From contig CANEDJ010000001.1 in the NCBI GenBank assembly GCA_947426265.1, forward strand, positions 17,310 through 81,309: 64,000 nt of DNA, given 5' to 3'. The DNA comes from an uncultured Mycoplasmatota bacterium. GTDB taxonomy: Bacteria > Bacillota_I > Bacilli_A > RF39 > UBA660. The notes under the pieces are model-generated. The model did not search any database, had not been told where the DNA came from, and was given only the letters and a program-made list of their open reading frames with translations. How positions within the stretch are numbered: position 1 is the stretch's first letter; each line of letters starts with the position of its first letter. The translations under genes were made by a program, and so were the position numbers. Shown here piece by piece: positions 3,206-62,409 of this stretch.

Positions 3206-3762
3206 AAATGATAGTAGGATTAGGAAATCCAGGAAAAGAATATGAAAATACACGACACAATGTTGGCTTTATGGCAATTGATAAAATTGCTTTAAAAAAT
3301 CATGTTACCTTGAACTCAAAAAAAGGAAATGGGATTTATACAATTTTTGAAAAAGAAGATGAAAAAATATTATTATTAAAACCGCTTACCTATATGAACC
3401 TATCTGGGGAAGCTGTGAAAGCATTGATGCAATATTATAAAATAGCAGTATCAGATATATTAATCATCAGTGATGATTTAGATATGCCAACTGGGAAAAT
3501 TAAGTTGAAATATAAAGGAAGCTCAGGGGGCCATAATGGACTAAAAAACATAGAACAACATTTAAAAACACAAGAATATAAAAGACTAAAAATAGGAATT
3601 TCAAATAATAAAAATTATGATACAAAAGATTATGTATTAGGAAGATTTTCAATAGAAGAAAAGGAAAAAATAGATAGTGTACTAAATACAGTAATTGATA
3701 TTTTTGACGATTTCTGTATAAATTCTTTTGAAAACGTCATGAATAAATATAATAAAAAATAG
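3202..3762 (+). CDS. pth: peptidyl-tRNA hydrolase
   Basis: MIVGLGNPG...YENTRHNVGF N-terminus. 4-nt overlap with rsmI stop. Confidence 0.9.
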   Translation: MKMIVGLGNPGKEYENTRHNVGFMAIDKIALKNHVTLNSKKGNGIYTIFEKEDEKILLLKPLTYMNLSGEAVKALMQYYKIAVSDILIISDDLDMPTGKIKLKYKGSSGGHNGLKNIEQHLKTQEYKRLKIGISNNKNYDTKDYVLGRFSIEEKEKIDSVLNTVIDIFDDFCINSFENVMNKYNKK

Positions 3763-3808
3763 TTGTGATACAAATGTGTCACTTTTTTGGCGTATAGGAG
3801 GCAATTAT

Positions 3809-6800
3809 ATGAAACTTTTTCATTCCTTGTTCCCAAATGTTCAAACATCTGGAGAAATTACAGGATTAACCCAAGAATTAAAAATGATATATTTATATCA
3901 ATTGTGGAATCTAAAAAAAAGAAATATTTTACTTGTAGCCAATAGTTTGTATGAAGCAAATAGGTGTTATCAAAGATTAAGTAAATATACAGAAGAAGTA
4001 TATTTTTTTCCAATGGATGATTTTCTTACGAGTGAAGCCTTGGCTATTAGTCCAGAATTTAAAGTAACAAGATTAGAAACATTAAATCATTTCATATCAA
4101 AAAATAATGGAATTATTGTAACCAATTTAATGGGTTTTTTACGTTTTCTTCCCTCTAAAGAAACATATAAAAAGGCCAGAATAAAAATGCATGTTCATGA
4201 CCAAATTGATATGCATCAAGTGATAGAACAATTATTAAGACTTGGATATATCAAGGAAACGATTGTCAATAAAACAGGAGAAATTGCGATAAGAGGTTTT
4301 GTTTTAGACATATTTCCATTAGGAGCAAGTCATCCAATTCGAATCGAACTGTGGGGAGATGAAATTGATTCTATTAGAGAATTTGATGTTGATAGCCAGC
4401 TAACCATTACAGAAATAGAAGAAATCGAGATAACTTCAAATACAGAGTTTTTAATCGATGAGATTTTAGATATAGAACCAAAACAAAGAGAATTGGGAAA
4501 TTATATACAGCCTTCAATGCTATTGGACTTTGTAGAAAGTCCTATATTGGTGTTTGAAAATTATGAAGATGTTAAGAGAGGTTATCAAACATTATCAGAA
4601 GAAATATTTGAATATCAAAATAATAATCATGAAAAATATCCTTATATGCATTCTTTAGAAAATATAAAAGCAAATGATATATTATATTTAAACAACTTTG
4701 ATAATCAAATCAATGGAGAAAATAAAAGAGAACAATTTCACTCACAGGAGCTAGAAATATTACATGGAGCAAGCGAGAAAGTAAAAGCAGAAATATTAAA
4801 ATATAGAAAGAAAACAATTATTATTTGTGTATCGAATCGTTATCAAGTTAATAAATTACTAGAAGAATGGAATGATATTTCAATTGCTTTTACTTCAATA
4901 AATGAAATAGTAGAGAATGCGATTAATATAGTAATCTATCCAATAACGCAGGGATTTCTATTTAAAGAGTATGTGGTTATTAGTGAACGAGAATTATTTG
5001 CGAAACAAGATTATTCTAGTAAATATAAAAGTAACTTTAAAATAGGAACAAAAATAAAAAATTTATCCAGTCTAGAAGAAGGAGACTATGTAGTTCATGT
5101 CGCCCATGGAATTGGAAAATATTGTGGATTAAAAACATTAGTAAAAAATGGTTTTAAAAAAGATTATTTGAATATTGAATATAAAGATGGCGACCATTTA
5201 TATGTACCAGTAGAAAAGATAGAATTTATTCATAAATATTCATCTAAAGATACAGCAATGCCAAAACTGAGTAAATTAGGCGGAACAGAATGGCAGAAGA
5301 AAAAATTAAAGGCAAGAGAACGAGCGGAAAGTATCGCAGGAGAGTTATTAGAACTTTATTCTTCAAGAGAATCCATAGAAGGTTTTGCATTTGAAGAAGA
5401 TTCAAAAGAACAATTGGAATTTGAAAAAGAATTTCCATATCAAGAAACATTAGACCAAATAAAAGTATCTACAGAAATCAAAAAGGATATGGAAAAACCA
5501 CATCCTATGGATAGACTACTATGTGGAGATGTTGGTTATGGAAAAACAGAAGTAGCATTTCGTGCCATTTTTAAAGCAATTCATTCAGGAAAACAAGTAG
5601 CATTTCTTTGTCCAACGACCATATTATCAGGGCAACATTATAGAAATGCAATAGAACGCTATCAAAATTATCCGTTTAATATTTGTCTTCTAAATCGATT
5701 CGTCAAGCCAAAACAATTGAAAGAAAATTTAAAGAAAATAGAAGAAGGAAAAATAGATTTGGTCATAGGGACACATCGTTTATTAAGTGATGATGTAAAA
5801 TTTAAAGATTTGGGATTATTGGTCATTGATGAAGAACAGAGGTTTGGAGTAAAACATAAAGAAAAGATAAAGCAGTACAAAAATAATATTGATGTATTAA
5901 CTTTATCAGCAACTCCAATTCCAAGAACCCTTCAAATGTCAATCGCTGGGATTAGAAGTATGTCTTTAATAGAAACACCTCCAGTAAATCGTTATCCTGT
6001 TCAGACTTATGTATTAGCAGAAAATGCGCAAATGATAAAAGATGCTGTTTATAAAGAATTAGGGAGAAATGGACAAGTTTTTATCTTATATAATCATATT
6101 GAAAGTATGGAAAGAAAAGAGCAAGAAATAAAACAATTGATACCAGAGGCTAGAATAATCAGTGTGCATGGTCAGATGGATAAAAATGATATGGAAGATA
6201 AAATTCTGGATTTTATAAATCAAAAGTATGACATTTTATTATGTACAACAATTATTGAAACAGGAATTGATATGCCAAATGTGAATACATTAATCATTTT
6301 AGAAGCAGATTACTTTGGCTTATCACAACTTTATCAAATTAGAGGAAGAGTAGGAAGAAGTAATAAAATTGCTTATTGTTATTTGATGTATACTCCAGGA
6401 AAAAGTTTGTCTGAAATAGCAACCAAACGATTAACAGTCATTAAAGATTTTACAGAATTAGGAAGTGGATTTTCAATTGCCATGAGAGATTTATCAATAC
6501 GTGGAGCAGGGGACGTATTAGGGAGTGAACAAGCTGGCTTTATTGATACTGTAGGAATAGATTTGTTTTTAGAAATGTTAAACGAAGCAGTAGAAAAGAA
6601 AAAGGGAAATATAATTGAAGAAAAGAAAGAAGAAGAACAACCATTACTAGATGTAGAAACAGCAATAGATAATGATTATGTTTCAGATACTGAATTAAAA
6701 ATTGAAATTCATCAAAAAGTAAATCAAATTAATTCAAAAGAAAAACTTTTGGAAGTTAAAAAAGAAATAGAAGATAGATTTGGTAAAATTTCTGATTCAT

Positions 6801-7087
6801 TAGAAATTTATATGTATGAACAGTGGTTTGAAAAATTAGCTCATCAATTAGATATAGAAAATGTGAAGCAAACAAAAAATTCTATTGAATTAATTTTGAA
6901 TCCTAAAAAAATGAAATTAATAGATGGAGAAAAATTATTTTTAAAAGCTTCTGAATTGTCAAGGTCAATTCGTTTTAGTAGTCGTTTTTCAAGATTAGTA
7001 ATCACTTTAGATATTGTTCATTTGGATAAACATTATATTTATTATTTAATAGAACTTTTAGAAATTTTAGAAAAATGCCAATCGTAA
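3809..7087 (+). CDS. mfd: transcription-repair coupling factor Mfd
   Basis: About 1090 aa. Superfamily 2 helicase motifs (GDVGYGKTEVA, DEEQRFG), a TRG-like region and a C-terminal D7-like domain. ATG at 3809 after AGGAGG at 3796. Confidence 0.9.
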   Translation: MKLFHSLFPNVQTSGEITGLTQELKMIYLYQLWNLKKRNILLVANSLYEANRCYQRLSKYTEEVYFFPMDDFLTSEALAISPEFKVTRLETLNHFISKNNGIIVTNLMGFLRFLPSKETYKKARIKMHVHDQIDMHQVIEQLLRLGYIKETIVNKTGEIAIRGFVLDIFPLGASHPIRIELWGDEIDSIREFDVDSQLTITEIEEIEITSNTEFLIDEILDIEPKQRELGNYIQPSMLLDFVESPILVFENYEDVKRGYQTLSEEIFEYQNNNHEKYPYMHSLENIKANDILYLNNFDNQINGENKREQFHSQELEILHGASEKVKAEILKYRKKTIIICVSNRYQVNKLLEEWNDISIAFTSINEIVENAINIVIYPITQGFLFKEYVVISERELFAKQDYSSKYKSNFKIGTKIKNLSSLEEGDYVVHVAHGIGKYCGLKTLVKNGFKKDYLNIEYKDGDHLYVPVEKIEFIHKYSSKDTAMPKLSKLGGTEWQKKKLKARERAESIAGELLELYSSRESIEGFAFEEDSKEQLEFEKEFPYQETLDQIKVSTEIKKDMEKPHPMDRLLCGDVGYGKTEVAFRAIFKAIHSGKQVAFLCPTTILSGQHYRNAIERYQNYPFNICLLNRFVKPKQLKENLKKIEEGKIDLVIGTHRLLSDDVKFKDLGLLVIDEEQRFGVKHKEKIKQYKNNIDVLTLSATPIPRTLQMSIAGIRSMSLIETPPVNRYPVQTYVLAENAQMIKDAVYKELGRNGQVFILYNHIESMERKEQEIKQLIPEARIISVHGQMDKNDMEDKILDFINQKYDILLCTTIIETGIDMPNVNTLIILEADYFGLSQLYQIRGRVGRSNKIAYCYLMYTPGKSLSEIATKRLTVIKDFTELGSGFSIAMRDLSIRGAGDVLGSEQAGFIDTVGIDLFLEMLNEAVEKKKGNIIEEKKEEEQPLLDVETAIDNDYVSDTELKIEIHQKVNQINSKEKLLEVKKEIEDRFGKISDSLEIYMYEQWFEKLAHQLDIENVKQTKNSIELILNPKKMKLIDGEKLFLKASELSRSIRFSSRFSRLVITLDIVHLDKHYIYYLIELLEILEKCQS

Positions 7088-7168
7088 TTTTATGAAAATG
7101 TTACTATTTAAAGTTAAATAATATAGAAATATGTATATTTATATTTTTCTTCTAAAATGAAAGAATTA

Positions 7169-7177
7169 TGATATAAT
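7169..7177 (+). promoter_or_regulatory. extended -10 element TGaTATAAT upstream of lipoprotein gene
   Basis: TG at 7169-7170 and TATAAT at 7172-7177. No strong -35. Confidence 0.35.
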
Positions 7178-7221
7178 AGTGATAACAAACTGTTATAGTT
7201 GGTTTAGTAAGGAGTGAAAAA

Positions 7222-7752
7222 ATGAAAAAACTACTACAAATGGGATTGTGCTGTTTATGCTGTGTTGGATTTTTATGTGGATGTGATAGTAATGACACTG
7301 ATACAAAAAATCCTGGTAAAGACAATAACCAAGAAACGGAGAATAAGGATAAAGAAAAAGAAAAATACGCCTTGGGAAAAGCTTTTAAGTTTGATGATTT
7401 AGAAATTACAATTGGAAGCGAATTTACATATGCAATTGTTGACAATAAATATTCTGACCATCATCAAAAAGAAGTTATTAAAATTCCTGTAACTGTGAAA
7501 AATTTATCAGAAGAAACTCATGGATTAAATATGTTTTACTATGATTTTTATGGTTCTAAGGGAACTGAGCTAGATTCAGTATCTGCTTATTTCTCAGAAG
7601 ATAGTGTAGATTTTGCTGGAGATTTAAGAACAGACGCATCATATACAAAGTATTTCTATGTATTATATGATGGAGATGGAACATATACAATTGAATTTAA
7701 TGATTTTAGTGAAAAAATCAGTATTGATTTTGAAGTAAAAAAAGCACAATAA
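7222..7752 (+). CDS. lipoprotein, DUF4352-like
   Basis: Signal peptide with lipobox LCGC. Asp/Lys-rich linker and a beta-rich C-terminal domain. Confidence 0.5.
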   Translation: MKKLLQMGLCCLCCVGFLCGCDSNDTDTKNPGKDNNQETENKDKEKEKYALGKAFKFDDLEITIGSEFTYAIVDNKYSDHHQKEVIKIPVTVKNLSEETHGLNMFYYDFYGSKGTELDSVSAYFSEDSVDFAGDLRTDASYTKYFYVLYDGDGTYTIEFNDFSEKISIDFEVKKAQ

Positions 7753-7754
7753 AG

Positions 7755-7786
7755 AAAAAAGTTGGATTTTCCAACTTTTTATTTTG
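7755..7786. terminator. bidirectional rho-independent terminator between convergent genes
   Basis: Stem aaaagttgga/tccaactttt with A-run upstream and T-run downstream. Overlaps the stop codon of the minus-strand pyrophosphatase gene. Confidence 0.55.
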
Positions 7787-9401
7787 CTTCATATTGTGCC
7801 ATAATATTTGGAACAACTTGTTTTTTACGAGAAACAATATTTGGTAAATAAGTTCCCTCTTGAATGGTTCTAAGTCCATATGCAGAACGAAGTAAACTAG
7901 CTCCTTCATTACTATATAAAATATAAGAACCATTTTCAATAATATCAGTTATAAATAGAGCTGTAAAATAATAATCATTCTCCATAGAAACTTGGTTTAA
8001 TAAATCAACATAAGCATCTTTGTTAGATAAAATTTCTTCAGCATTGGTTGTTGTAATTTGACCAATTCCCATTTTTCTATCCCCTAATGGAAAAATTTTA
8101 AAGTCTGTATAAAGGACTTCATAAGGTGTTTTTCCTTTTATACTAGAACCAGCTTTTAACATATTAATTCCATATTCTTTATAATCTATTCCTATTAAAT
8201 TACTTAATTCAGTAACAACACTTCTATCAAGATCTGTTGTTGTAGGTGATTTTAAAATAAGCGTATCAGATAAAATTCCAGATAACATTAATCCTGCCAT
8301 TTGTTTTGGAATTGGAATTAGATTTTCATTGTAAAGCTGATATATAATTGTATTTGTACTACCTACTGGCATATTTCTAAAGTTAATAGGCATAGATGTT
8401 CCAATTGTTCCAATATTATGGTGGTCTATAATTTCCATAATTTCCGCTTCTTCTAAACCAACAACACTTTGGTCATAAGAATTATGGTCAACTAAAATAA
8501 CTTTGTGACGTTTTACTTCGTTTGCATCTGAAAGTCTTAACATTCCTAAACATTTTTCATCCCTATTGATAACAGGATAATAGCTATATTTCGTTTGATT
8601 AGCTATAGAAATAAATTCCTTGACATCATCTAATTCTTGAATGCACAAAACATTTTTAACAGATACAATTTCACTTGCATATTTACATAAATTAAAAATT
8701 CTGGTTACTTTAAATGTGTCATAATCGGTTTTAATGATATTAACCTTATTTGCTTTTGCAATTTCAACATGTTCAGGTTTAATATTAGAACCTCCTGTTA
8801 AAATAATTAAACGAGCCTTATTGTTGACTGCATATTCAATAACGCTATGTCGATCTCCCATAATAACAATACTAGAGCGGTCTATTTTTATTGTTTCAAT
8901 AATTGTTGTACTTTTATATGATGCAACAAAAGCTTCCCCTTCTATTTCTTCATCAAAACGAGTAAGTGCAGTTCCATTTAAAACTTCTAAAATATTATCA
9001 TAAGAAGCTTTTAAATGATGTAATTCATTGGATAATTGGTCTTCTGCGATATCACCCATACTCAGAATTCCAACTAAATGTTGTGCTTCATCAACAACTG
9101 GAATTTTGTGAATTTTTGCATTTGTCATTGCCAAGAATCCTTGATAGACAGAAGTTTTATCTGTGATGAAATATTTTTTTGAATAATTTAAATCTTTGAC
9201 TTTTACTTTTACATCGTTTAGATATTTTGGGATATCCACTTTAAAATAATCTAACGCATATTTTGTTTCATTGTTTATTTCACTTAATACGACAGGTACT
9301 GCATTTATTCCTAATTGGTTTTTTAAGTAAGAAAGGGTAATCGCTGCGGTGACACTGTCAGTATCTGGTCTTCTATGACCAAAAACGTAAACTTTTTCCA
9401 T
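7779..9401 (-). CDS. ppaC: family II (DHH/DHHA2) inorganic pyrophosphatase with inserted CBS domains
   Basis: N-terminal FGHRRPDTDS DHH motif, a central CBS pair, and a C-terminal DHHA2 region. AAGGAGGAG RBS 6 nt before the ATG. Confidence 0.7.
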   Translation of the reverse strand: MEKVYVFGHRRPDTDSVTAAITLSYLKNQLGINAVPVVLSEINNETKYALDYFKVDIPKYLNDVKVKVKDLNYSKKYFITDKTSVYQGFLAMTNAKIHKIPVVDEAQHLVGILSMGDIAEDQLSNELHHLKASYDNILEVLNGTALTRFDEEIEGEAFVASYKSTTIIETIKIDRSSIVIMGDRHSVIEYAVNNKARLIILTGGSNIKPEHVEIAKANKVNIIKTDYDTFKVTRIFNLCKYASEIVSVKNVLCIQELDDVKEFISIANQTKYSYYPVINRDEKCLGMLRLSDANEVKRHKVILVDHNSYDQSVVGLEEAEIMEIIDHHNIGTIGTSMPINFRNMPVGSTNTIIYQLYNENLIPIPKQMAGLMLSGILSDTLILKSPTTTDLDRSVVTELSNLIGIDYKEYGINMLKAGSSIKGKTPYEVLYTDFKIFPLGDRKMGIGQITTTNAEEILSNKDAYVDLLNQVSMENDYYFTALFITDIIENGSYILYSNEGASLLRSAYGLRTIQEGTYLPNIVSRKKQVVPNIMAQYEAK

Positions 9402-9506
9402 AAACTCCTCCTTAAAATCCGTATATACGATTATACCATATTTTTGAAAAAGTGTCGTATAAAATTGTTATTTCATCACAAAATATGGTTAGAAAGTGAG
9501 GGAAAT

Positions 9507-48621: not shown

Positions 48622-49554
48622 ATGGGCGGCAAGATATTTAAAACCTTAGATGAACAAATAGAAATCTTAAAATCAAAAGGGTTGATAGTTGAAGACTTAG
48701 ATAAAGCAAAAGAGATTTTATTCCGTGAAAATTACTTTTTTATTAGTGGATATAGACACCTGTTTATGCGCACAGTGAAAGAAAGTAGATTTATTGAAGG
48801 AACGACTTTTGATGAGCTTTATGCAATGTTTTTGTTTGACAGAAAAATACGAAATATTATGTTCAAATATTTATTAATAATTGAAAATAATATCAAATCA
48901 ATCATCAGTTACACTTTGTCAAAAAAATATGGTTTTAAAGAAAAAGATTATTTGGACCCTAAAAATTTTACGCAAGATAATTTAAGAGTGAGACAAGTAC
49001 ATGATGTTCTAAATAAAATGAAAAGGCAAATAAGAGTAAATGGAAAACAACATGCTGCTACTATGCATTACCTTAGCAATTATGGTTATATACCAATGTG
49101 GATTTTAGTAAAAGTATTGTCATTTGGAATTGTTTCTGAATTATATTGTATACTAAAAGCAGAAGATCAAGAAACAATAGCAGATATATATGGTATTGAT
49201 ATTGAATCTTTAACGATATATTTAGCTCTTCTTTCAAATTTTAGAAATTTATGTGCTCATGAAGATATTTTATATGACCATAGGACCCAAAGAGTAATTC
49301 CAGATAATAAGTATCATCATATGTTAGATATCAGTCAAACAAAAGATGAATATGATTTTGGAAAAAATGATCTATATGCGCTTATTATTATCATGAAGCA
49401 AATGCTTAGAGAAGAAGAATTTCGAGAATTGATATATGAATTAGGTTATGAAATTGATATACTAGATGGTAAAGTAGAAGTATTACCATTAAACACAATT
49501 TTAAATAAAATAGGTTTTCCAGATAATTGGAGAGATATTGTTGATATGGATTAA
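48622..49554 (+). CDS. Abi_2 family abortive-infection protein (AbiD/AbiF-like)
   Basis: N-terminal LDEQIEILKSKGLIVED...YFFISGYRHLF characteristic of Abi_2. About 310 aa. Confidence 0.65.
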   Translation: MGGKIFKTLDEQIEILKSKGLIVEDLDKAKEILFRENYFFISGYRHLFMRTVKESRFIEGTTFDELYAMFLFDRKIRNIMFKYLLIIENNIKSIISYTLSKKYGFKEKDYLDPKNFTQDNLRVRQVHDVLNKMKRQIRVNGKQHAATMHYLSNYGYIPMWILVKVLSFGIVSELYCILKAEDQETIADIYGIDIESLTIYLALLSNFRNLCAHEDILYDHRTQRVIPDNKYHHMLDISQTKDEYDFGKNDLYALIIIMKQMLREEEFRELIYELGYEIDILDGKVEVLPLNTILNKIGFPDNWRDIVDMD

Positions 49555-50652: not shown

Positions 50653-50728
50653 AAGCTCTGCTTTTTAGATTTACTTCTTTTTACTTTTTTGTTATAATAA
50701 AAATAATAATAGAGGATTGGTGAAATTC

Positions 50729-52498
50729 ATGGAGCGAGAGGATTATTTAAAAGAACAGATAGAAACTTATATTGATCGTTTAGACTTATTAGGCATGCAA
50801 GAAGCGATCGATCAAAAGCGTGTTAAAGAAGCTGTTGATGAACTAGAAAAGTTAGCTACTGAATATATAAGTTTATTAGATGAAAGACTTGAAAGTCAAA
50901 TTCAAGGAATAGAAAAGAGATTTGTAGTTACTTTAGAAGAAGAATTAGAAAAAAGAAAACAAATTTGCGATGTTGTAAATAAAAGATTTGAAGAAATTGT
51001 ATCAATATTTTCAGATATAGAGAAAATAAGCGTTGCATCAGACCTTTGGTCACATATTAGTACTGTGATAGAAGCTTCAAAAAAACAAGTCCATGAATAT
51101 GAGAGCGATATTAAGTTAGTTGAAGAACAATTCATAAAAATAAATCAAGCAGAAAAAAAAGAAGCTAGTTTGAATGAAAATCGTAGAAAAGCTTATTTGA
51201 AGAAAACAGATTTAAGAAATAGACAAGTATCATTTGAATTTTTAAATGATGAAATTTTAGAAGTCTATCGTTCACTTTTAATTGAAGGAAATGCAGAGCA
51301 ATTAGATTTTTCAAATATACAAGCCAAAGAAAAGGCATTAAAAAAGCGTCAAAATCAATTGTTAGAAAATTTAGAGTTAGCACGTAATACCAAAGATGCT
51401 GAGGGTTATATAAAAGTTTATGAGGGACGTGTCAGAGAAAATCGATTAGAACTAGATAAAGTATCAGAGCAAACTTTTCTTCATTTGTTAAGAAGGATAA
51501 TGGATGCTCCAGTAGATAGCTATGAATCCTTAGCAAGTAGGACAAAAACAGTACAAGGAATGGTAAAATCTAGAATTTCTCAAGTAGAGCAATTGTATCA
51601 AGAAGGAATAGTGGAAAAGGAAGAATATACGACTCTAGCTTCAAGGATTGATCATAGTAGAATATATAGTCAATTGTCAGATTTGAAAGAATTAGACAGA
51701 AATGAAGCCTTTATAAGTTCAACTGAAGAACAATTAGAGCATACAAGAGATCATATAAAAGGAAAAGAAGAACTAGAATTAATATTTGCAGAACGTGCTA
51801 AGGAAAGAGGAAGAGTTGCAATTGTACCAGAGCCAATAGATCAGCCATCTTTATTAGATAATGGCGGAGAGGCAGAAATATTATTTGCAGATGAAGATGG
51901 ATTTGATGGTTATGAAGACTTAACCTCAAAACAAGTAAAGAAAGATAAAAAAAGAAGACGCCAAGTAATATCTATTGAGCCTGCAAAGAAAAGTTTATTG
52001 GAAAAATTGGGAAAAGCAATTGGAAATATTTCAAAAGGAATAAAAGACAAAATTATAGAATTGACGAAAAAGCCTACTAAGTATAATCCAGTAATAGGAG
52101 ACCAGATTGAGTTAAAAGAAAATGCAGCTATTTATGCTAATCCTTTAGATCTACCAGAAAAGAAAGATAAAAAAGAAGCAAAAGAATTAGGTTTAACTGG
52201 AACTAAATTATTTGTAGCAAGAGGTGTAATTTTAGATTATACGGGGACTCCGATTCATATTACAACAGATTATGGAGCAGATTTAGAAGCAATAGCTAAA
52301 AATATGAACTTAAAAGAGGGAACATATAGTATCGCTTTAAGCTGTTCACTAGGAGATTCAGAAGGAAAATTTATTGCTTTAACTGATGATAAATTAAATC
52401 CAGATATTGAAAAAGGCTGGATTAGCGCAGTGGATATGAATATAATCATTCTAAATTCATTAAGTGCCGCAAAGGAAAAGGGAGGAATGAAAAAATGA
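50729..52498 (+). CDS. hypothetical long coiled-coil protein with globular C-terminal domain
   Basis: About 590 aa. The first 330 aa have heptad-like Glu/Lys/Leu periodicity. Basic KKDKKRRRQ patch. No TM. Confidence 0.45.
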   Translation: MEREDYLKEQIETYIDRLDLLGMQEAIDQKRVKEAVDELEKLATEYISLLDERLESQIQGIEKRFVVTLEEELEKRKQICDVVNKRFEEIVSIFSDIEKISVASDLWSHISTVIEASKKQVHEYESDIKLVEEQFIKINQAEKKEASLNENRRKAYLKKTDLRNRQVSFEFLNDEILEVYRSLLIEGNAEQLDFSNIQAKEKALKKRQNQLLENLELARNTKDAEGYIKVYEGRVRENRLELDKVSEQTFLHLLRRIMDAPVDSYESLASRTKTVQGMVKSRISQVEQLYQEGIVEKEEYTTLASRIDHSRIYSQLSDLKELDRNEAFISSTEEQLEHTRDHIKGKEELELIFAERAKERGRVAIVPEPIDQPSLLDNGGEAEILFADEDGFDGYEDLTSKQVKKDKKRRRQVISIEPAKKSLLEKLGKAIGNISKGIKDKIIELTKKPTKYNPVIGDQIELKENAAIYANPLDLPEKKDKKEAKELGLTGTKLFVARGVILDYTGTPIHITTDYGADLEAIAKNMNLKEGTYSIALSCSLGDSEGKFIALTDDKLNPDIEKGWISAVDMNIIILNSLSAAKEKGGMKK

Positions 52499-53367: not shown

Positions 53368-53441
53368 AGGGGTATAGTTCAATGGTAGAATAACGGTCTC
53401 CAAAACCGCTGATGTGGGTTCAACTCCTGCTACCCCTGCCA
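53368..53441 (+). tRNA. trnW: tRNA-Trp (anticodon CCA), CCA 3' end encoded
   Basis: Folded by hand into a cloverleaf. Acceptor AGGGGTA/TACCCCT, D-arm GTTC-AATGGTA-GAAT, anticodon loop CTCCAAA, T-arm GTGGG-TTCAACT-CCTGC, discriminator G. Confidence 0.75.
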
Positions 53442-53492
53442 AATGTAAATAAACTCTAAATTTTAGAGTTTTTAATATATGATAAGAAAGAA

Positions 53493-53852
53493 ATGATTAA
53501 GATGGATAATGATTTTGTATATTTATCAAGTCATCAAGGATTTGCTCTAGTTGATAAAATTAGTGAACTAAAAGAAAATCCATATTTTAGAGATGAAATT
53601 GCCGAAAGTTTTATAAAAGAAGTCTATACAAGGGCTACAGAAATAACCGTTAATAGTCTCAACACTGGAACTAATATATTGTCAAAATTACGAAAAAATG
53701 GCAATAAAATTAAAATCTCAAAAAGTAAATTTGAATATATAACAAGATTAACTGGAATAGATGTTTTTGATGAAGAAACTATTAATCAATTTATATCTAA
53801 AGTAAATAAGGCTAATCCTGAAACTGAACAAACTAACTTAAGAAGAAGATAA
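53493..53852 (+). CDS. hypothetical protein (119 aa)
   Basis: ORF immediately downstream of tRNA-Trp. No recognisable domain. Weak RBS. Confidence 0.35.
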   Translation: MIKMDNDFVYLSSHQGFALVDKISELKENPYFRDEIAESFIKEVYTRATEITVNSLNTGTNILSKLRKNGNKIKISKSKFEYITRLTGIDVFDEETINQFISKVNKANPETEQTNLRRR

Positions 53853-53973
53853 TAAAAGTAACATTCATACAACAAATAAAATTTGGAAACTCGTTCAGTT
53901 TCCGTGCCATTTGAGAATAAGGCGAACTCCATCTTCGTATTTAAAGGTGGTGTCGCTATTAATATAGCAATTA

Positions 53974-54000
53974 AAAGAGTGCCAAAGTGGGCACTTTTTT
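53974..54000 (+). terminator. rho-independent terminator
   Basis: Stem agtgcc/ggcact followed by T6. Confidence 0.5.
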
Positions 54001-54029
54001 CCATTTTATGGTATAATTAAGGTATGAAG

Positions 54030-54732
54030 GAAATGGTAGAAGTAATTCGAATAGATTAGTTTCTAATATATAATGAAACTGAATTTGTGACAAGGAATTA
54101 CTCATAAAGCATATGAGGAACTTAATTTGTCCGATGTACAATTAGAAACTTTTATAGAAAGATTAATTATTGATATAAATGCTCTAACATATGAGGACTT
54201 AGAAAAATAGTTTTTGCACAATTAAAAAATGAGTTTTCTTGTAATGACGAACTCTTAGAATTATATTTTATAAAGGCTGGGAGTATAATAAAAGAGTTGG
54301 CTGTAAAAGATGATGTAAATGACAGAAAAATAAGCAAAAAAGTTTTTTAAAGTTAATATCAGATGTTAATAAAACCTTAGATAGTTGGTATGTTAGCAAG
54401 ATTGGTATAGAGAAATATTGTAAATTAATGAGAAAAAAATATCTCAAATGTATGGTAATAGAGAAATTATGACATCTATCATTAGATATTTGAATAGCTT
54501 AGGATGTAAGACTTCTACTGATAAAGAGTTCAATAAAAGTAGTATAGGAAGAATATTAAACAATAAAAAGTATATAGGAGTTTATTTACATAGAGATATA
54601 GAAACCCCAGATGGAATACCTAGAATAATAGAAGATGAATTGTTTGGGAAAGTTCAACAGGAGCTAACCAGGAACGGTTTGGTGTCTGCTAGAAATAGAG
54701 CAAATTTTATTAAAAGAAATAAAAAATTATAA
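54030..54732 (+). pseudogene. decayed large serine recombinase gene (frameshifted fragments; longest piece 54448..54732 retains recombinase-domain similarity)
   Basis: The 94-aa fragment IIRYLNSLGCKTSTDKEFNKSSIGRILNNKKYIGVY...IIEDELFGKVQQEL matches the recombinase domain that follows the resolvase domain in large serine recombinases. Upstream 400 bp holds several short out-of-frame ORF pieces and no intact N-terminal catalytic domain. Confidence 0.4.
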
Positions 54733-54889
54733 TTATATAGAGAATGGAACAGAAATAGTTACAACTGATAAAAATATATTTATTTTTAATTATGATTTGA
54801 CAATATTTTTGAGTGTATAAATAAAAAAATGTGCTACAGTTTAAAAATGTATTATTGAGATAAATAATTATAGCAAAGGAAGTGAGATC

Positions 54890-55231
54890 ATGAATCATGA
54901 AATGAGATTACATGAAGGACCATTTAATAGAATTAATAGTGGAATAAAAACGATAGAGTATCGATTAAATGATGAAAAAAGAAGACAAATTAAGGTAAAT
55001 GACACAATTACTTTTTATAAAAGACCTGAAGAAGTAGAAACAATTAAGGTAAAAGTTGTAGAGTTAAGATATTATGATACTTTACTAGATATGTATGCAG
55101 ATACTTTTAAAAGTTATTTAAATGAAATATATGAATCTCCACAGGCAGTAGTAGATGATACTTCCTACTATACAGAGGAAGAAGTAAAAAAATATGGTTG
55201 TGTAGCAATCTTTTTTGTGAGAATCGGATAA
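54890..55231 (+). CDS. ASCH-domain protein (YqfB-like PUA-fold)
   Basis: 113 aa. F..INSGIKTIEYR...IKVNDTITFY pattern plus C-terminal YGCVAIFFVRI, resembling the ASCH/YqfB architecture. Confidence 0.55.
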   Translation: MNHEMRLHEGPFNRINSGIKTIEYRLNDEKRRQIKVNDTITFYKRPEEVETIKVKVVELRYYDTLLDMYADTFKSYLNEIYESPQAVVDDTSYYTEEEVKKYGCVAIFFVRIG

Positions 55232-55233
55232 AT

Positions 55234-55713
55234 ATGGTTACAATTATTAATTATGATAGAAAATATGCAGAAGAAATAGATAAACTAGATCAAGAATATT
55301 GGGGAATCTGCGAAACTACTAATGTATCAGATGAAATAAGAGACCAGGATATTGTGAAACTTGCAAAGTTAGAAGATTATATTGTAGGCATTATACATTT
55401 TAAACCAATAGGAGATTTAATAGACGCTTATCATCTTTTAGTAAAGCCAGAGAATCAGGGACAAGGAATTGGCAACCTTTTGATGAAAGAAGCCTTAAAA
55501 GAAACTTTAAAAAATGATTTTAAAACAGTAATCGCTCATGCTGTAGAATTTGAAGGAAATATAAATGCAAAGAAAATATTGGAGACTAATGGATTTCAGG
55601 AACTTTATAGAGTAAAAAATTATTGGGAATCTTTATACCCGGGGAGTTATTGTAAACAATGTAATAGCTATCAATGTCATTGTGGAGTAGTTGTATATCG
55701 AAAGAACTTATAA
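55234..55713 (+). CDS. GNAT-family N-acetyltransferase (160 aa) with Cys-rich C-terminal tail
   Basis: Acetyl-CoA motif A QGQGIGNLLMKEAL. Starts 2 nt after the ASCH stop. Tail CKQCNSYQCHC. Confidence 0.7.
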   Translation: MVTIINYDRKYAEEIDKLDQEYWGICETTNVSDEIRDQDIVKLAKLEDYIVGIIHFKPIGDLIDAYHLLVKPENQGQGIGNLLMKEALKETLKNDFKTVIAHAVEFEGNINAKKILETNGFQELYRVKNYWESLYPGSYCKQCNSYQCHCGVVVYRKNL

Positions 55714-55750: not shown

Positions 55751-55759
55751 TGGTATAAT
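55751..55759 (+). promoter_or_regulatory. extended -10 TGgTATAAT upstream of nucleotidase gene
   Basis: TG at 55751-55752 and TATAAT at 55754-55759. This excludes the ATG at 55758 as the start codon. Confidence 0.4.
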
Positions 55760-55781
55760 GAAATTGAAGAGGAGGATAAGA

Positions 55782-56297
55782 ATGGATAAAGAAATTAAAA
55801 ATATACTAAAATTAGTAGATGAAAATTTTTGGTACATGATTGATATTGATGGAGTTTGCATAGATACAGAAGAACGTATTGCTATTATAGCTCGTCAATT
55901 AGGATGGAAAAGAGCCTTAGAAACAATAAATTGGCATGAGCATATTTATTCTTCTAGGCAGATCAATCATAGTTTAGATGTATTAAGAGAAGTTCAAAAG
56001 AATTTAAAAAGAATTCAACTATTAACTACAAATCATAGTCCTCTTGAAAAGAAAGAGAAGATCTCTTTTATGAGAGAACAAGGCATAGAAATTCCAATTG
56101 TTTCAGTGCCACCAAAAGTATCAAAAGCATTAGTAGTTCCCCCATCATTTTATAATCGGAAAGTTGTATTGGTAGATGATAAGAAAGAAAATGTTATAGA
56201 TTGGAGAAATCATGGAGGAGTGGGAATTGTTTTTACAGAACAGGATAGTTCAACTCCAAAAGTAAAAAGTTTAGAATTTTTAAGATATGTAAAGTAG
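55782..56297 (+). CDS. HAD-superfamily 5'(3')-deoxyribonucleotidase-like protein (NT5C family)
   Basis: N-terminal YMIDIDGVCID (DxDG nucleophile motif) and C-terminal VLVDDKKENV. ATG after GAGGAGGA. Confidence 0.5.
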   Translation: MDKEIKNILKLVDENFWYMIDIDGVCIDTEERIAIIARQLGWKRALETINWHEHIYSSRQINHSLDVLREVQKNLKRIQLLTTNHSPLEKKEKISFMREQGIEIPIVSVPPKVSKALVVPPSFYNRKVVLVDDKKENVIDWRNHGGVGIVFTEQDSSTPKVKSLEFLRYVK

Positions 56298-56307
56298 GAG
56301 GTATTAT

Positions 56308-58371
56308 ATGTTAATCAAATCAAACGCAATAGATCGTTTATTAAGGGAAAATCCAGGCTTAGGAGAAAGACGTTTTGGATTGCCAGATATTGGTCTTAGA
56401 GTAGATGGTGAAAAGTTCAATCCGACAGTTCAAAGCATTGCTGATGCAATAGATTTTTATGGTTTCGAAGTGAGAGATGAAAATATAGCAACAATTCCTG
56501 ATATAGATTTAGGAAGTGGGAATCCAACAAAGTATCCCCCATTTCCTCTATCAATAGAAGAAATGAAAAAATCTTTAGATTCTCTTTCTATGTACAAATA
56601 TCCCTATACAGAAGGTGATGATAATATTAGAAAAATATTACTTGATTATATAGAAAAAGAAGGAATTATTAATACTTCACCATATGCTTATAAAGACGTG
56701 GATGAAAAAGGTTTATCTGTTCATAATGTTACTTTTTTGCCATCAACATCAATTGCATTTAATATGATTATTAATGTTATCTCAAAGCCAGGAGATGTTG
56801 TATTAGTAACAGGTCCGAATTATGGCTTATTCACAATTCGAGCAGAAAGGGCAGGAGCCGAAGTTGAAATATTAAATTTAGAAAAAGAAGATAATTGGCT
56901 AGTCAATCCAACAAAGTTGGCGAATAAAATAGATGAAATCAATGAGAGTTTACAAAAGGTTTATAATCGTAGAAAAGGATATGTTCCAAGAGTAGTGGCG
57001 TTTTTAAATGCGAACCCAAATAATCCAACTGGAAAAGTGATGGGAGAAAAAGATATCGATTTACTGAGAGCAATAGGACAAATCTGCTTGGAACGTGGTG
57101 TGTTTATAATTGATGATTTGGTATATCGTGATTTAACGTTTGATGAAAATAATCTTGCAAAACCAATCGCAACAATTCCAGGAATGTTCCGAAATACAAT
57201 CTCTTTGTTTGGACTTTCTAAAAGCTATGGAATGGCTAGTTTACGTGCTGGATTTGTAGTGGCAGATGAAATTATAATTAGAGAGTTAATAAATCGTATT
57301 TTCCAAGAAATGGATTCTTCTCCAGATATTGTAGGAAGAGCTTTAGCTGGTGCATTTAATACAAGCAAAGAAAGAGAACTTGTCTATCAGGAATACTTTC
57401 GTGATTTAAGAAATATCTATCAGTATAAATTTCATTTATTAAAGGCTCTGGTAAATGGAATTGAAAGCATTAAAGATAGTCCTTATTATGAAGAAGTAAG
57501 CTCCAAAATAGTATCTGAAGTAGAAAAAGAAAATTTAGAACAAGTCTTAAAGGGACTTCCTTATACGGATTTTCCAGAAAATTTAATACCAGAAGCTGGA
57601 TTTTTCGCTATTTTAGATTTTACAAGAATAAAAGGTATGAAATATCATGGGGATACAATCAATAGCGAAAAAGATTTATTAAAATTTTTCTATAAAACTT
57701 CTAGGACAAGATTTTTAGTCGGGCAATCAATTAGTTGGCCTTATGAAAATGAATTAGTGGGGAGGGTTACTTTTGCCCTAGAAGATGAACAAATTATTAG
57801 TGCACTTAAAAATATGAATTTAGCACTTTCAAAGCTTACAGTAAGAGAAGAATATATTATTAGAAAAAATGAGCTAAAAGATCAGGAGCAAATGGCTCAT
57901 ATTAAAGTCGATGGTTGGAGAACTGCATACGATAAAATTGTCGCATCAAAATATTTAAATGAATTAAATTATGAGGCTCAAACAGAACGTTATATACGTA
58001 GTTTTGAAGATTATAAAGATTTAGTATTGGTGGCAGTAGAAGGTAATGAAGTTTTAGGCTATTCTTGTTTTGATATTAAGAAATTCTATGAGAAATATGA
58101 TTCTGAATTGGTTAGTTTATATATTAAACCTGATCATAAAGGAAAAGGGATAGGAAGTGCATTATTCAAAGAAACGGTAAAAGAACTATTAAGTCGTGAT
58201 AGAAAAAATATGATAGTTTGGTGTTTTGCAGAAAATGAAAAAGCAATTCGTTTTTATGAAAAATTAGGTGGAAAAAATGTAGAAACGAAACAAGCTAAAA
58301 TAGGAGATAATTATTATAAAGAATATGGATTTTACTTTGATTTAGAAATGATAATGAAAGATCAATTCTAA
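56308..58371 (+). CDS. fusion protein: class I/II PLP-dependent aminotransferase (N, about 480 aa) plus GNAT acetyltransferase (C, about 170 aa)
   Basis: IDLGSGNP near the N-terminus. SKSYGMASLRAGF PLP-lysine motif. C-terminal YIKPDHKGKGIGSALF GNAT motif A. Confidence 0.65.
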   Translation: MLIKSNAIDRLLRENPGLGERRFGLPDIGLRVDGEKFNPTVQSIADAIDFYGFEVRDENIATIPDIDLGSGNPTKYPPFPLSIEEMKKSLDSLSMYKYPYTEGDDNIRKILLDYIEKEGIINTSPYAYKDVDEKGLSVHNVTFLPSTSIAFNMIINVISKPGDVVLVTGPNYGLFTIRAERAGAEVEILNLEKEDNWLVNPTKLANKIDEINESLQKVYNRRKGYVPRVVAFLNANPNNPTGKVMGEKDIDLLRAIGQICLERGVFIIDDLVYRDLTFDENNLAKPIATIPGMFRNTISLFGLSKSYGMASLRAGFVVADEIIIRELINRIFQEMDSSPDIVGRALAGAFNTSKERELVYQEYFRDLRNIYQYKFHLLKALVNGIESIKDSPYYEEVSSKIVSEVEKENLEQVLKGLPYTDFPENLIPEAGFFAILDFTRIKGMKYHGDTINSEKDLLKFFYKTSRTRFLVGQSISWPYENELVGRVTFALEDEQIISALKNMNLALSKLTVREEYIIRKNELKDQEQMAHIKVDGWRTAYDKIVASKYLNELNYEAQTERYIRSFEDYKDLVLVAVEGNEVLGYSCFDIKKFYEKYDSELVSLYIKPDHKGKGIGSALFKETVKELLSRDRKNMIVWCFAENEKAIRFYEKLGGKNVETKQAKIGDNYYKEYGFYFDLEMIMKDQF

Positions 58372-58383
58372 AAGGAGGTTAGT

Positions 58384-59433
58384 ATGACTTACTTAATATT
58401 TCAATCAGCGTTATCAATAGAGAATAATCAAATACAATCTTGGGCGCCCAAAAGGAATCCTAAAACAAATAATAAAAAATATTGGTGGGAAAATGTTGGA
58501 AAAATAAAAAAGGGAGATATTATATATTTCATTTCAGATGCATATTTATGTGCCAAAGGAAGAGCTATTATGGATGGTAAAGAAGTAGTACATCAAGATT
58601 ATTATACTGAACCTCACAATAATGATAGTTGGAGCGATGATGGATATGGAGTTATTAGTGAAGTTTTAGAAACTTATCAAACCAAACAAATAAAAATAAT
58701 ACAGGAAATGAAACAGAAAAATTATCAGATAGAAGCACAAGAGAAGGATCGTTTTCCCTTTTGTATTAGAACAGGCAGTTTTACCGCAAAACAAGGGGGA
58801 TATTGTTTTGAAATTCATTCAAAGCTGATTACATTTATAGAAGAATGTGTTATAAATGCAGGAAATAGAATAAAATGGGGAGAGAAATATAATCATCATA
58901 ATATATTAGATAAGAAACTTCCTAGTACATATGGAACAAGTGAAATATCTTCAAAAAAAATAAAAAAGGGAGAAAAAGGAGAAAAAGGAACTCAAAAATT
59001 TTTTGAAAATAAAGGATTTCTTACGGAACTTGTAGCAGAGGAGAAGCGAAATCCAGCAGATTTGGTCATTAGGAATAATGGCAAAGAATACATGATAGAG
59101 ATAAAGAATATAACTGTAGAATCGGCAGAAAAGTCTATTTATTTAAATGACTCACAGCTTCAAAATTTATATTTACAAAAGACTTATTTATGTTTATATT
59201 ATGGCTTAGAAGAAATGGTATTTTTATTAAATCCTCAGAAACAAAAAACAGTAATAAAAGAGCTTATAGAAAGTTTTGATAAAATTCGGGAAAATGTAAT
59301 TCACCAATATAGTGGAAAATTTTATGTAGATAATATTTCAGTTTTATTGACAGAGAAAATGATTGTAGAAAATTTTATCGATATTAGTAATTGGAATTTA
59401 AATCAAATAGAAGCCTATTTAAATAAAAAATAG
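58384..59433 (+). CDS. hypothetical two-domain protein: N-terminal PUA-like (EVE/ASCH-like?) domain plus C-terminal PD-(D/E)xK nuclease-like (DUF3883-like) domain
   Basis: N-terminal WAPKRNPKTNNKKYWWENVGKIKKGDIIYF. C-terminal GFLTELVAEEKRNPADLVIRNNGKEYMIEIK with D...E.K spacing. Tentative. Confidence 0.35.
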   Translation: MTYLIFQSALSIENNQIQSWAPKRNPKTNNKKYWWENVGKIKKGDIIYFISDAYLCAKGRAIMDGKEVVHQDYYTEPHNNDSWSDDGYGVISEVLETYQTKQIKIIQEMKQKNYQIEAQEKDRFPFCIRTGSFTAKQGGYCFEIHSKLITFIEECVINAGNRIKWGEKYNHHNILDKKLPSTYGTSEISSKKIKKGEKGEKGTQKFFENKGFLTELVAEEKRNPADLVIRNNGKEYMIEIKNITVESAEKSIYLNDSQLQNLYLQKTYLCLYYGLEEMVFLLNPQKQKTVIKELIESFDKIRENVIHQYSGKFYVDNISVLLTEKMIVENFIDISNWNLNQIEAYLNKK

Positions 59434-61385: not shown

Positions 61386-61410
61386 AAGATTTTGAAATCT
61401 TCTATTTTCT
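61383..61410. terminator. bidirectional terminator between convergent genes
   Basis: Stem tagaagatt/aatcttcta flanked by A-run and T-run. Confidence 0.5.
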
Positions 61411-62409
61411 ATTATTGATTGCTTTTTCAAATACAGGAAGCATTCCAATGCCATTTTCTCTATGAGGAGGCAATTGATAAATATCATGACCAGGGAACTC
61501 ATTTCCTTCAATTAAAAGCGGACCATGGTCAGAAATTGCAACATCCCATCCAACTAATCCCACTTGTGGAACCACTTTAGCTGCTTCTAATACTAAACTT
61601 TTTACGAGTTCCCATTCTGGAATTTGAAATCCTTGTATTGGAGTGTTAGTTTCTGGATGTATATCAAAAACTAAATTTTTTTTATTTACAGCTGGATAAA
61701 TAATTTTTCCTGTTTTTATATCAATAGGAGCAACCATACCACCAGCATTAAAATTATCCACTATTTTTCCACAGCCAATTCTAGAATAAGCAGCAATAAT
61801 TTTTGATTTATTATTTTTAAAAATGCTAATTACTCGAATTGTATTAATGGAAGAAGGATTTAAAGAACTCATTGTTTTTTCTTGAATAACAAGTTCTTCT
61901 ATTAAAAATAAATTTTGTTTCATTAAATATTGATAAAGATTTTTATCTTTCCACTCATTAATTTTGATTTTCTGCATATTATCTCCATGAGTTCCATTTA
62001 AAGGTTTTGCAAAAATTTCTTTTTTATTTTTTAAAAAATTATTGAATGCTTCCTGATTGCTTCCATTTAATAAAATCCAATCACGTTTGATATAATCCTT
62101 AAACATTTTATTAAATTCTTGTTTTTCTCTAAACAGGTAGGTATAGTTTTGATCATTATATTTTTTAATATAAGCATTATTAATTCCTCTGGTCAAGATT
62201 GTTTTTCGTTGATTTTTATTTAAATGATACATTTCAAACAGAAGATAATCTAAATATCCTGCTTGATACTTTAACCCACAATAAACAATATCAAAAAAAA
62301 TAAATAATTTGTTTTTTTTCGTTTTCTTTTTTACCTCGTTAATTGTAAGAAAAAATCGTTTATAGTCCATGCTAAAAATTCTTTTTATTAAATAACTTAG
62401 TTTTTTCAT
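61402..62409 (-). CDS. sugar-transfer-associated ATP-grasp family protein (alpha-L-glutamate ligase-like)
   Basis: 335 aa with the ATPgrasp_ST pattern (FDIHPETNTPIQGFQIPEW...WDVAISDHGPLLIEGN). Confidence 0.55.
   Translation of the reverse strand: MKKLSYLIKRIFSMDYKRFFLTINEVKKKTKKNKLFIFFDIVYCGLKYQAGYLDYLLFEMYHLNKNQRKTILTRGINNAYIKKYNDQNYTYLFREKQEFNKMFKDYIKRDWILLNGSNQEAFNNFLKNKKEIFAKPLNGTHGDNMQKIKINEWKDKNLYQYLMKQNLFLIEELVIQEKTMSSLNPSSINTIRVISIFKNNKSKIIAAYSRIGCGKIVDNFNAGGMVAPIDIKTGKIIYPAVNKKNLVFDIHPETNTPIQGFQIPEWELVKSLVLEAAKVVPQVGLVGWDVAISDHGPLLIEGNEFPGHDIYQLPPHRENGIGMLPVFEKAINNRK

Follow-up and report, generated by a model that had tools for sequence, protein, structure and literature searches.

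A long class I aminotransferase fused to a GNAT acetyltransferase in uncultured gut Bacilli

Transamination and acetyl-CoA-dependent N-acetylation on the same carbon skeleton are carried out by the unfused pairs EctB/EctA (ectoine), PatA/DapH (the acetylase branch of diaminopimelate synthesis) and PhnW/PhnO. Here we describe an open reading frame (ORF) that encodes a long class I aminotransferase and a C-terminal GNAT acetyltransferase as one polypeptide, found in a 64,000-nucleotide stretch of DNA from an uncultured Mycoplasmatota bacterium (GenBank assembly GCA_947426265.1, contig CANEDJ010000001.1, positions 17,310 to 81,309; hereafter the window). The proposed fusion enzyme would resemble the three pairs in its two reactions; it differs from them in that their members are separate proteins, with class III or V aminotransferases or a non-GNAT acetyltransferase, and homology is at the superfamily level at most. 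The fusion may be a self-contained bifunctional enzyme whose aminotransferase makes a primary amine and whose GNAT domain N-acetylates it, a reading to which we give slightly less than an even chance.

Both halves have solved relatives. On the aminotransferase side these are class I (subgroup Ib-like) enzymes, namely Pyrococcus alanine aminotransferase (AlaAT, PDB 1xi9) and aromatic aminotransferase (AroAT, 1dju), E. coli AlaA (4cvq), B. subtilis BacF (6l1l), the prephenate/aspartate aminotransferases 6f77 and 5wmh, and human kynurenine aminotransferase I (KAT I). The fusion is only 16-21% identical to them and adds a 65-residue N-terminal extension, three insertions and the GNAT domain. On the GNAT side, a standalone putative acetyltransferase of Thermus thermophilus (1wk4/2cy2) matches the whole domain, residues 518-679, at E 4.1e-20; we take its locus tag to be TTHA1209, and a literature search under that name found nothing relevant. 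The GNATs P0174 and P0190 share 49-54% identity with the fused domain, together with its motif A and catalytic-region residues; unlike the fusion they stand alone, and P0174 may be a fusion fragment. Each domain belongs to a huge superfamily and is an ordinary member of it, so the fusion is no surprise at the protein-family level. The architecture is already visible in public annotations under generic names (at JGI, 'aspartate/methionine/tyrosine aminotransferase / L-amino acid N-acyltransferase YncA'). We found it in no curated family or solved structure, and literature searches for aminotransferase-GNAT fusions turned up no paper on it.

As the original prediction had it, the ORF runs without internal stop or frameshift (Table 1). 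The identical 687-residue protein is present on 18 (P0001) and 10 (P0004) independent contigs and more; the contigs that carry it number dozens and come from different sources. The two-domain architecture is found at full length, with 74-100% identity, in more than 120 clusters at 90% identity. A search for the same fusion in other genomes, which the prediction had proposed, was made by scanning one genome per GTDB species. It gave 71 related loci, about 60 of which encode the full-length fusion at 64-100% identity, with the same length and a conserved junction. The only observations that might suggest two genes joined by a sequencing or assembly error come from three loci in metagenome-assembled genomes (MAGs), where the ORF is split (L059, 399 + 304 residues; L060, 371 + 318 residues) or shortened (L050, 546 residues). 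In L059 and L060, however, the break falls within the aminotransferase module, away from the domain boundary, and the splits are therefore probably frameshifts, errors or pseudogenes rather than natural two-gene versions. Because the identical protein lies on so many contigs and the architecture recurs across clusters and species-representative genomes, a frameshift or assembly artefact is, for practical purposes, excluded. The ratio of nonsynonymous to synonymous substitution rates (NG86, nine species pairs) is 0.03-0.12 in the aminotransferase part and 0.02-0.14 in the GNAT part; purifying selection on each half is therefore strong.

Table 1. Features of the fusion ORF and of the genes around it (positions in the window; AF2, AlphaFold2)
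Feature	Position	Strand	Basis or remark
Complete fusion ORF, 687 aa (long class I aminotransferase + GNAT)	56308..58371	+	ATG start, uninterrupted; Pfam, database relatives, AF2 model
Ribosome-binding site AGGAGG	56296..56301	+	6 nt before fusion ATG; overlaps the upstream gene's stop codon; sequence read directly
N-terminal extension, aa 1-65, specific to the 'long aminotransferase' family	56308..56502	+	Median 78% identity; absent from solved class I aminotransferases
Aminotransferase core + C-terminal small domain, aa 66-511	56503..57840	+	Three insertions (about aa 119-138, 205-228 and 384-420); GNAT-less relatives stop at aa ~511
Codon of PLP-binding Lys305 (S304-K305 motif)	57220..57222	+	Alignments; Pyrococcus AroAT comparison
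Interdomain linker TVREE, aa 512-516, very short	57841..57855	+	End of aminotransferase-only relatives in alignment; first GNAT strand aa 517-520 in AF2 model
GNAT acetyltransferase domain, aa 517-684	57856..58359	+	Pfam; PDB 1wk4/2cy2 match; AF2 strand/helix order
GNAT motif A, predicted acetyl-CoA pyrophosphate-binding loop K611-G-K-G614-I-G616	58138..58155	+	Pfam, alignments
HAD-type 5'(3')-deoxyribonucleotidase-like gene	55758..56297	+	phrog_2643, E 4e-9; DIDGV motif; 10 nt from fusion
349-aa lineage-specific ORFan	58384..59433	+	12 nt after fusion; own AAGGAGG; this species group only
tRNA-Trp	53368..53441		Followed by strain-specific segment
94-aa large serine recombinase fragment	54448..54732		Pfam Recombinase, E 9.2e-14; phrog_95 integrase
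ASCH gene	54890..55231	+	phrog_19935 ('RNA-binding protein'), E 5e-19
Standalone small GNAT	55198..55713	+	Listed TTG start overlapped by ASCH gene by 34 nt

The aminotransferase module occupies residues 1-511 and the GNAT domain residues ~517-684, with about five residues between them. We set the module at ~511 residues because GNAT-less relatives align over residues 4-511 and then stop. It is ~110 residues longer than solved class I aminotransferases, and the N-terminal extension and the three insertions make up the difference. Pfam Aminotran_1_2 (PF00155) matches residues 66-372 (E 7.9e-25; 88.2 bits against a cutoff of 19.7). In alignments of 30-56 sequences reaching 32% identity, Y172, N239, D269/D270, Y273, S304-K305, R313 and R486 are invariant. 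The predicted motif around the lysine that binds pyridoxal 5'-phosphate (PLP), SKSYGMASLRAGF, lies at S304-F316. Sequence comparison assigns K305 as the Schiff-base lysine and R313, eight residues further on, as the phosphate ligand, and the SK...R pattern aligns with that of Pyrococcus AroAT in a HMMER alignment. The other class I positions are likewise filled, with D270 at the pyridine N, Y273 and N239 at O3' and Y172 stacking on the PLP ring, and the two-domain alpha/beta fold of class I/II aminotransferases is present. The invariant R486, within GRVTFA, aligns to the R of RISYA in 1dju and is predicted to hold the alpha-carboxylate; one substrate would therefore be an alpha-amino or alpha-keto acid, though possibly the donor alone. 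By a hand alignment, rather than a computed one, to the Thermus aspartate aminotransferase (AspAT), Thr147 would be the equivalent of its Lys109. The module thus has all the residues for binding PLP and an alpha-amino or alpha-keto acid, and looks functional.

Which class I reaction it catalyses is less readily read from such comparisons. No NCBIfam cutoff was reached for the named subfamilies AspAT, AlaAT, tyrosine aminotransferase (TyrAT), DapL/DapC, HisC, PatB C-S lyase or GntC. The best match is GntC, at 88 against 415 bits, and the rest score at most 86 bits against cutoffs of 276-675; ten other representatives of the long aminotransferase family likewise neared no NCBIfam equivalog cutoff. 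Class I fold enzymes with identical PLP residues carry out lyase, decarboxylase and cyclodehydratase reactions, so the module could do other chemistry, as a PatB/MalY-type C-S beta-lyase, a decarboxylase or a GntC-like cyclodehydratase, with the GNAT domain acetylating or detoxifying its amine product or substrate. GntC is the top NCBIfam match for several family members as well as for the fusion, and PatB and the C-S lyases score like true transaminases. These scores are, however, ~20% of the family cutoffs, and the best structural matches are ordinary alanine, aspartate and aromatic transaminases, although sequence cannot discriminate these chemistries. We consider such a reaction unlikely. 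Aspartate 4-decarboxylase was rejected as the identity of the ~510-residue module, there being no such PDB or NCBIfam match among the matches listed.

The GNAT assignment of the C-terminal region, on which the original prediction depended, is borne out by Pfam, by the 1wk4 match and by the order of strands and helices at residues 517-684 of the AF2 model, which fits the GNAT fold of a mixed beta-sheet with helices alpha1-alpha4. Acetyltransf_1 (PF00583) matches residues 556-654 (E 2.2e-17; 63.8 bits against a cutoff of 20.7), and Acetyltransf_7 (46.8 against 27), FR47 (44.2 against 22.1) and Acetyltransf_10 (37.7 against 23.6) also exceed their cutoffs; together the four models span about residues 549-665. 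A domain search of the two halves therefore returns Aminotran_1_2 and four GNAT models above curated cutoffs. Motif A, YIKPDHKGKGIGSALF, was found as predicted, at Y605-F620, and follows the consensus (Q/R)-x-x-G-x-(G/A) except for a Lys in place of Gln/Arg at the first position. Across relatives E600 and G616 never vary, and G614, N643 and Y650 hardly do. On these sequence grounds the GNAT half looks functional. None of the named GNAT families RimI, ArsN1, PAT, PaiA, MshD and AAC reached its NCBIfam cutoff (RimI 48.4 against 86.4; ArsN1a 37.7 against 170; PaiA 30.8 against 250; PAT 26 against 300). Weaker matches than that to 1wk4/2cy2 were to YncA, PaiA, ArsN1 and RimI. Phosphinothricin PAT, arsinothricin ArsN1, YncA/MnaT and PaiA acetylate the alpha-amino group of amino-acid analogues, or polyamines; the matches of the fused GNAT to this group are consistent but weak, far below cutoff and short of establishing membership.

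The AF2 model was rebuilt with GNAT-less relatives in the alignment, giving a mean predicted local distance difference test (pLDDT) of 91.5 and a predicted template modelling score (pTM) of 0.86 over the whole chain; an earlier model, from a shallow alignment at 74-95% identity, had reached a pLDDT of 72, with the active-site loop below 50. Confidence over the whole chain suggests a defined interdomain arrangement. On another reading the two activities would not be sequential. The GNAT domain could acetylate proteins, on lysine or at the N terminus, or sense acetyl-CoA and so regulate the aminotransferase or other proteins, or the aminotransferase could be a ligand sensor that controls the GNAT domain. 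Models for this exist in bacterial acetyltransferases fused to cyclic nucleotide- or ACT-type sensors, and in MocR regulators, which use an aminotransferase fold as sensor. However, the full catalytic set is invariant, including the alpha-carboxylate Arg486, and the aminotransferase is the more conserved half, which argues for an enzyme rather than a sensor; a protein acetyltransferase is further disfavored by the RimI score below cutoff. We regard these roles as improbable.

The fusion is rare across the protein universe, yet common inside its own clade. Among 1.84 billion representatives at 50% identity, the full-length form amounts to about one cluster (P0121) plus fragments, and the GNAT-less long aminotransferase to about 40 clusters at 33-53% identity. 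Every host of the fusion is a MAG from the uncultured low-GC Bacilli of the gut and carries the label Bacilli, 'Tenericutes' or Mycoplasmatota. Among the hosts are Ca. Faecimonas, Coprovivens, Scybalousia, Faecenecus and Scatovivens; the samples were of human, mouse, chicken, rabbit and ruminant origin. In a neighbour-joining tree of the aminotransferase module, computed without bootstrap support and in agreement with the identity levels, every fusion falls in one clade that is sister to GNAT-less clades, giving the fusion a single origin. Three GNAT-less proteins (P0322, P0338 and P0341; 70-79% identity) are nested within that clade. At their loci no GNAT ORF or remnant lies nearby, and a tblastn search with the GNAT domain gave no match at E <= 10 in the loci tested. 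On this tree the simplest history would be that the GNAT domain was gained once and lost at least twice. Among longer aminotransferase-family matches with extra N-terminal sequence, none carries a GNAT domain.

The GNAT-less long aminotransferases (for example P0122, P0124, P0273 and P0318; loci L063-L068 and L077-L086) are 33-53% identical to the fusion over residues 4-511. They share its N-terminal extension, insertions, invariant residues and low-GC gut Bacilli hosts; unlike the fusion they end at residue ~511 and have ATP-grasp, NUDIX, LysR and ABC-transporter or NAD-salvage neighbours. In three subclades (P0273/P0335/P0332; P0318; P0124; 44-48% identity) the start of a DcsG_N-type ATP-grasp gene overlaps or abuts the aminotransferase stop. 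The usual operon there runs LysR regulator, IDI-like NUDIX, aminotransferase, DcsG_N ATP-grasp, a second ATP-grasp of the L-amino-acid-ligase (LAL) type and amino-acid ABC transporter (L079-L082, L085 and L086, about 2400-9500). L083 and L084 carry a variant, which in L083 reads aminotransferase, DcsG_N ATP-grasp and HAD phosphatase. This operon looks like an undescribed amino-acid or peptide pathway. Partners are also found fused. P0141 and P0152 (668-669 residues) are NUDIX-aminotransferase fusions whose NUDIX domain is homologous to that of the operon (27-31% identity, E 1e-19 to 5e-31). P0270 (413 residues) joins a HAD domain (Hydrolase_3) to a GNAT domain 38% identical to the fused one. 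Separately, P0192 (1085 residues) is a fusion of a thiamine pyrophosphate enzyme and an aminotransferase, at 27% identity.

In the GNAT-less clade closest to the fusion (P0122, 53%), the aminotransferase sits inside an NAD-salvage array (L077, 1-9539; L078) with nicotinate phosphoribosyltransferase (NAPRTase), NudE-like NUDIX, NadE, NadD, radical SAM, NAD kinase, ADP-ribosylglycohydrolase, CinA and an NrtR-like regulator. Within 6 kb of the aminotransferase, L068 (1814-4521) and L064 (4798-5820) likewise have NAPRTase, NUDIX or NadE. We know of no role for an aminotransferase in NAD salvage. When NUDIX, NAD-salvage or ATP-grasp partners were sought near fusion genes, none was found. The long aminotransferase family is uncharacterised and unusual in the way it takes on NUDIX, HAD, ATP-grasp or GNAT partners. 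By analogy with its operons, its aminotransferase would typically pass an amine to an amide-forming enzyme, often beside a phosphate or pyrophosphate hydrolase, and the fused GNAT could fill the role of that amide-forming partner, an analogy drawn from relatives at 44-48% identity.

We infer that the two activities of the fusion are coupled, and in the following order. The aminotransferase module would turn a carbonyl compound, in the simplest form a 2-oxo acid, into a primary amine, in that form an L-amino acid, using a standard amino-acid donor. The rigidly attached GNAT domain would then N-acetylate the amine with acetyl-CoA. N-acetylation would make the reversible transamination irreversible, and the product would be an N-acetyl amino compound. 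The original prediction of transamination followed by N-acetylation is compatible with all that we found and draws indirect support from the GNAT-less relatives coupled to ATP-grasp enzymes; for its suggestion of a sugar or nucleoside substrate nothing was obtained. Several points weigh against a self-contained bifunctional enzyme. The GNAT domain was lost at least twice within the fusion clade, without a replacement GNAT nearby, and the aminotransferase therefore works in its absence. The ATP-grasp partner is lacking in the subclades nearest the fusion, so the analogy with amine acylation comes from more distant relatives. The AF2 model is of a single chain, whereas the aminotransferase is an obligate dimer. 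The C-S lyase and GntC matches, weak as they are, score as high as those to true transaminases, and with no NCBIfam equivalog near cutoff for either half and no paper on the fusion, these comparisons point to no particular substrate.

The order of the two steps could also be reversed. The GNAT domain would then N-acetylate an amino-keto acid, or else a cyclic imine (tetrahydrodipicolinate, for example), and the aminotransferase would transaminate the N-acetylated keto acid, as in the acetylase branch of diaminopimelate synthesis or with acetylated arginine intermediates. N-acyl protection ahead of transamination is established pathway logic, exemplified by B. subtilis DapH/PatA and by ArgA/ArgD, and the weak NCBIfam and PDB matches of the aminotransferase include LL-diaminopimelate and N-succinyl-diaminopimelate aminotransferases. 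These diaminopimelate-type matches are nevertheless far under cutoff (about 84 against 507 bits) and no better than those to AspAT, TyrAT and PatB. Moreover, no dap or arg gene or deacetylase is among the conserved neighbours, and the aminotransferase is retained in GNAT-less lineages. Taken together, this order seems doubtful, and transamination followed by acetylation remains the reading that we prefer.

The original prediction also placed the fusion in a small pathway built around an acetylated amine, together with an ASCH 'deacylase-like' gene and a standalone GNAT. Both genes are present beside the fusion, close to it and on the same strand, and YqfB-type ASCH proteins are N4-acylcytidine amidohydrolases (PMC6972931). 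However, neither has a homologue in any of the 71 related loci, the same species included. They belong to a strain-specific segment that follows tRNA-Trp (the two together span 53368-55713) and contains a 119-residue ORF, the serine-recombinase fragment, the ASCH gene and the standalone GNAT. L001 (same species, 97%) and L002 (sister species, 83%) lack this segment, and nucleotide synteny with them begins only at ~55694-55701, around the end of the standalone GNAT; at the corresponding place L002 has an intact 574-residue serine recombinase and L001 a 1489-residue surface protein. The two GNATs are not close paralogues, sharing a 33-residue match around motif A and nothing beyond. A pathway of the three genes is thus very unlikely, and the fusion is independent of these two neighbours.

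The segment has the look of a decayed element that had integrated at a tRNA hotspot, and the ASCH gene and the standalone GNAT are its cargo. Compared with a phage DNA collection, the variable segment 53442-55720 gave no match. Because YqfB-type ASCH proteins deacylate N4-acylcytidine, the pair may relate to nucleoside or RNA acetylation independently of the fusion, and could represent an acetyl-cytidine 'eraser + writer' pair on a variable segment. The fusion itself was considered as mobile-island cargo and rejected as such, its position near a cell-wall hydrolase (Hydrolase_2) and tRNA-Trp being common to relatives at 78-79% identity while only the intervening segment varies. L072 has the order Hydrolase_2, tRNA-Trp, variable genes and aminotransferase, and L003 and L005 have the same Hydrolase_2 upstream of their fusion. 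Since this hydrolase/tRNA-Trp arrangement is common to the three loci, the fusion is chromosomal and ancestral at this position. A search for defence systems with PADLOC returned nothing for the fusion or its neighbours (one spurious match, E 0.0045), and plasmid proteins gave only distant aminotransferases, at most 26% identical to the fusion.

Immediately around the fusion, co-oriented genes lie 10 nt upstream and 12 nt downstream, each with a strong ribosome-binding site. The upstream HAD-like gene likely starts at ATG 55782, preceded by AGGAGG at 55770-55775, and an extended -10-like sequence, TGGTATAAT, stands at 55751-55759 ahead of its start. A promoter and terminator scan gave counts equal to shuffled expectation in this A+T-rich DNA, and the operon reading relies on the hand-read ribosome-binding sites and this one extended -10. 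A PDB sequence search with the upstream 179-residue protein gave only spurious low-complexity matches. The HAD-like gene adjoins the fusion only in L001 and L002; in L042 a homologue at 60% identity lies 6.6 kb from it. The downstream ORFan has no Pfam, PADLOC or PHROG match, a permissive Pfam search gave nothing usable, and its PDB search likewise returned only spurious low-complexity matches. Only four clusters (65-99% identity) represent it among 5.8 billion proteins, and it evolves much faster than the fusion (69% vs 94% identity on the same 171-kb contig). Read by eye, DLVIRNNGKEYMIEIKN in its C-terminal region recalls a PD-(D/E)xK nuclease motif, and an N-terminal PUA match is insignificant (E 0.17). 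Both genes accompany the fusion only in L001 and L002; across the family as a whole, neither is a partner. Gene content around the fusion shows no conservation, and the commonest neighbour family occurs at 15 of the 68 loci. The neighbours that recur often are ABC ATPases, a metal P-type ATPase and its ArsR regulator, TetR regulators and lipoproteins. Elsewhere in the window, an Abi_2 (abortive-infection-like) protein (48622-49554) is encoded just upstream of an HtrA-type protease, a 593-residue coiled-coil-rich protein at 50717-52498 has no Pfam match, and a 'sugar-transfer associated ATP-grasp' gene lies at 61402-62409 on the minus strand.

The long aminotransferase family could, with low probability, be the core of an unrecognised gut-Bacilli pathway in which a NUDIX or HAD hydrolase, the aminotransferase and an amine-acylating ATP-grasp or GNAT enzyme act on one skeleton. 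We raise it because of the NUDIX-aminotransferase, aminotransferase-GNAT and HAD-GNAT fusions, the NUDIX/aminotransferase/ATP-grasp and aminotransferase/ATP-grasp/HAD operons, and the HAD gene next to the fusion here. If so, the product of the fusion would be a new N-acetylated amino metabolite, whose precursor might be phosphorylated or linked to a nucleotide, or which might be tied to NAD salvage as in L077. More generally, an uncharacterised aminotransferase family of ~500 residues that repeatedly recruits amide-forming and NUDIX/HAD partners is a concrete target for enzymology. If the two reactions of the fusion are coupled, a single compact protein would lead from a keto compound to an N-acetylated amine in widespread uncultured gut Bacilli. 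N-acetyl amino acids are common among gut metabolites, yet their sources are poorly documented, and a dedicated bacterial producer would be useful to know.

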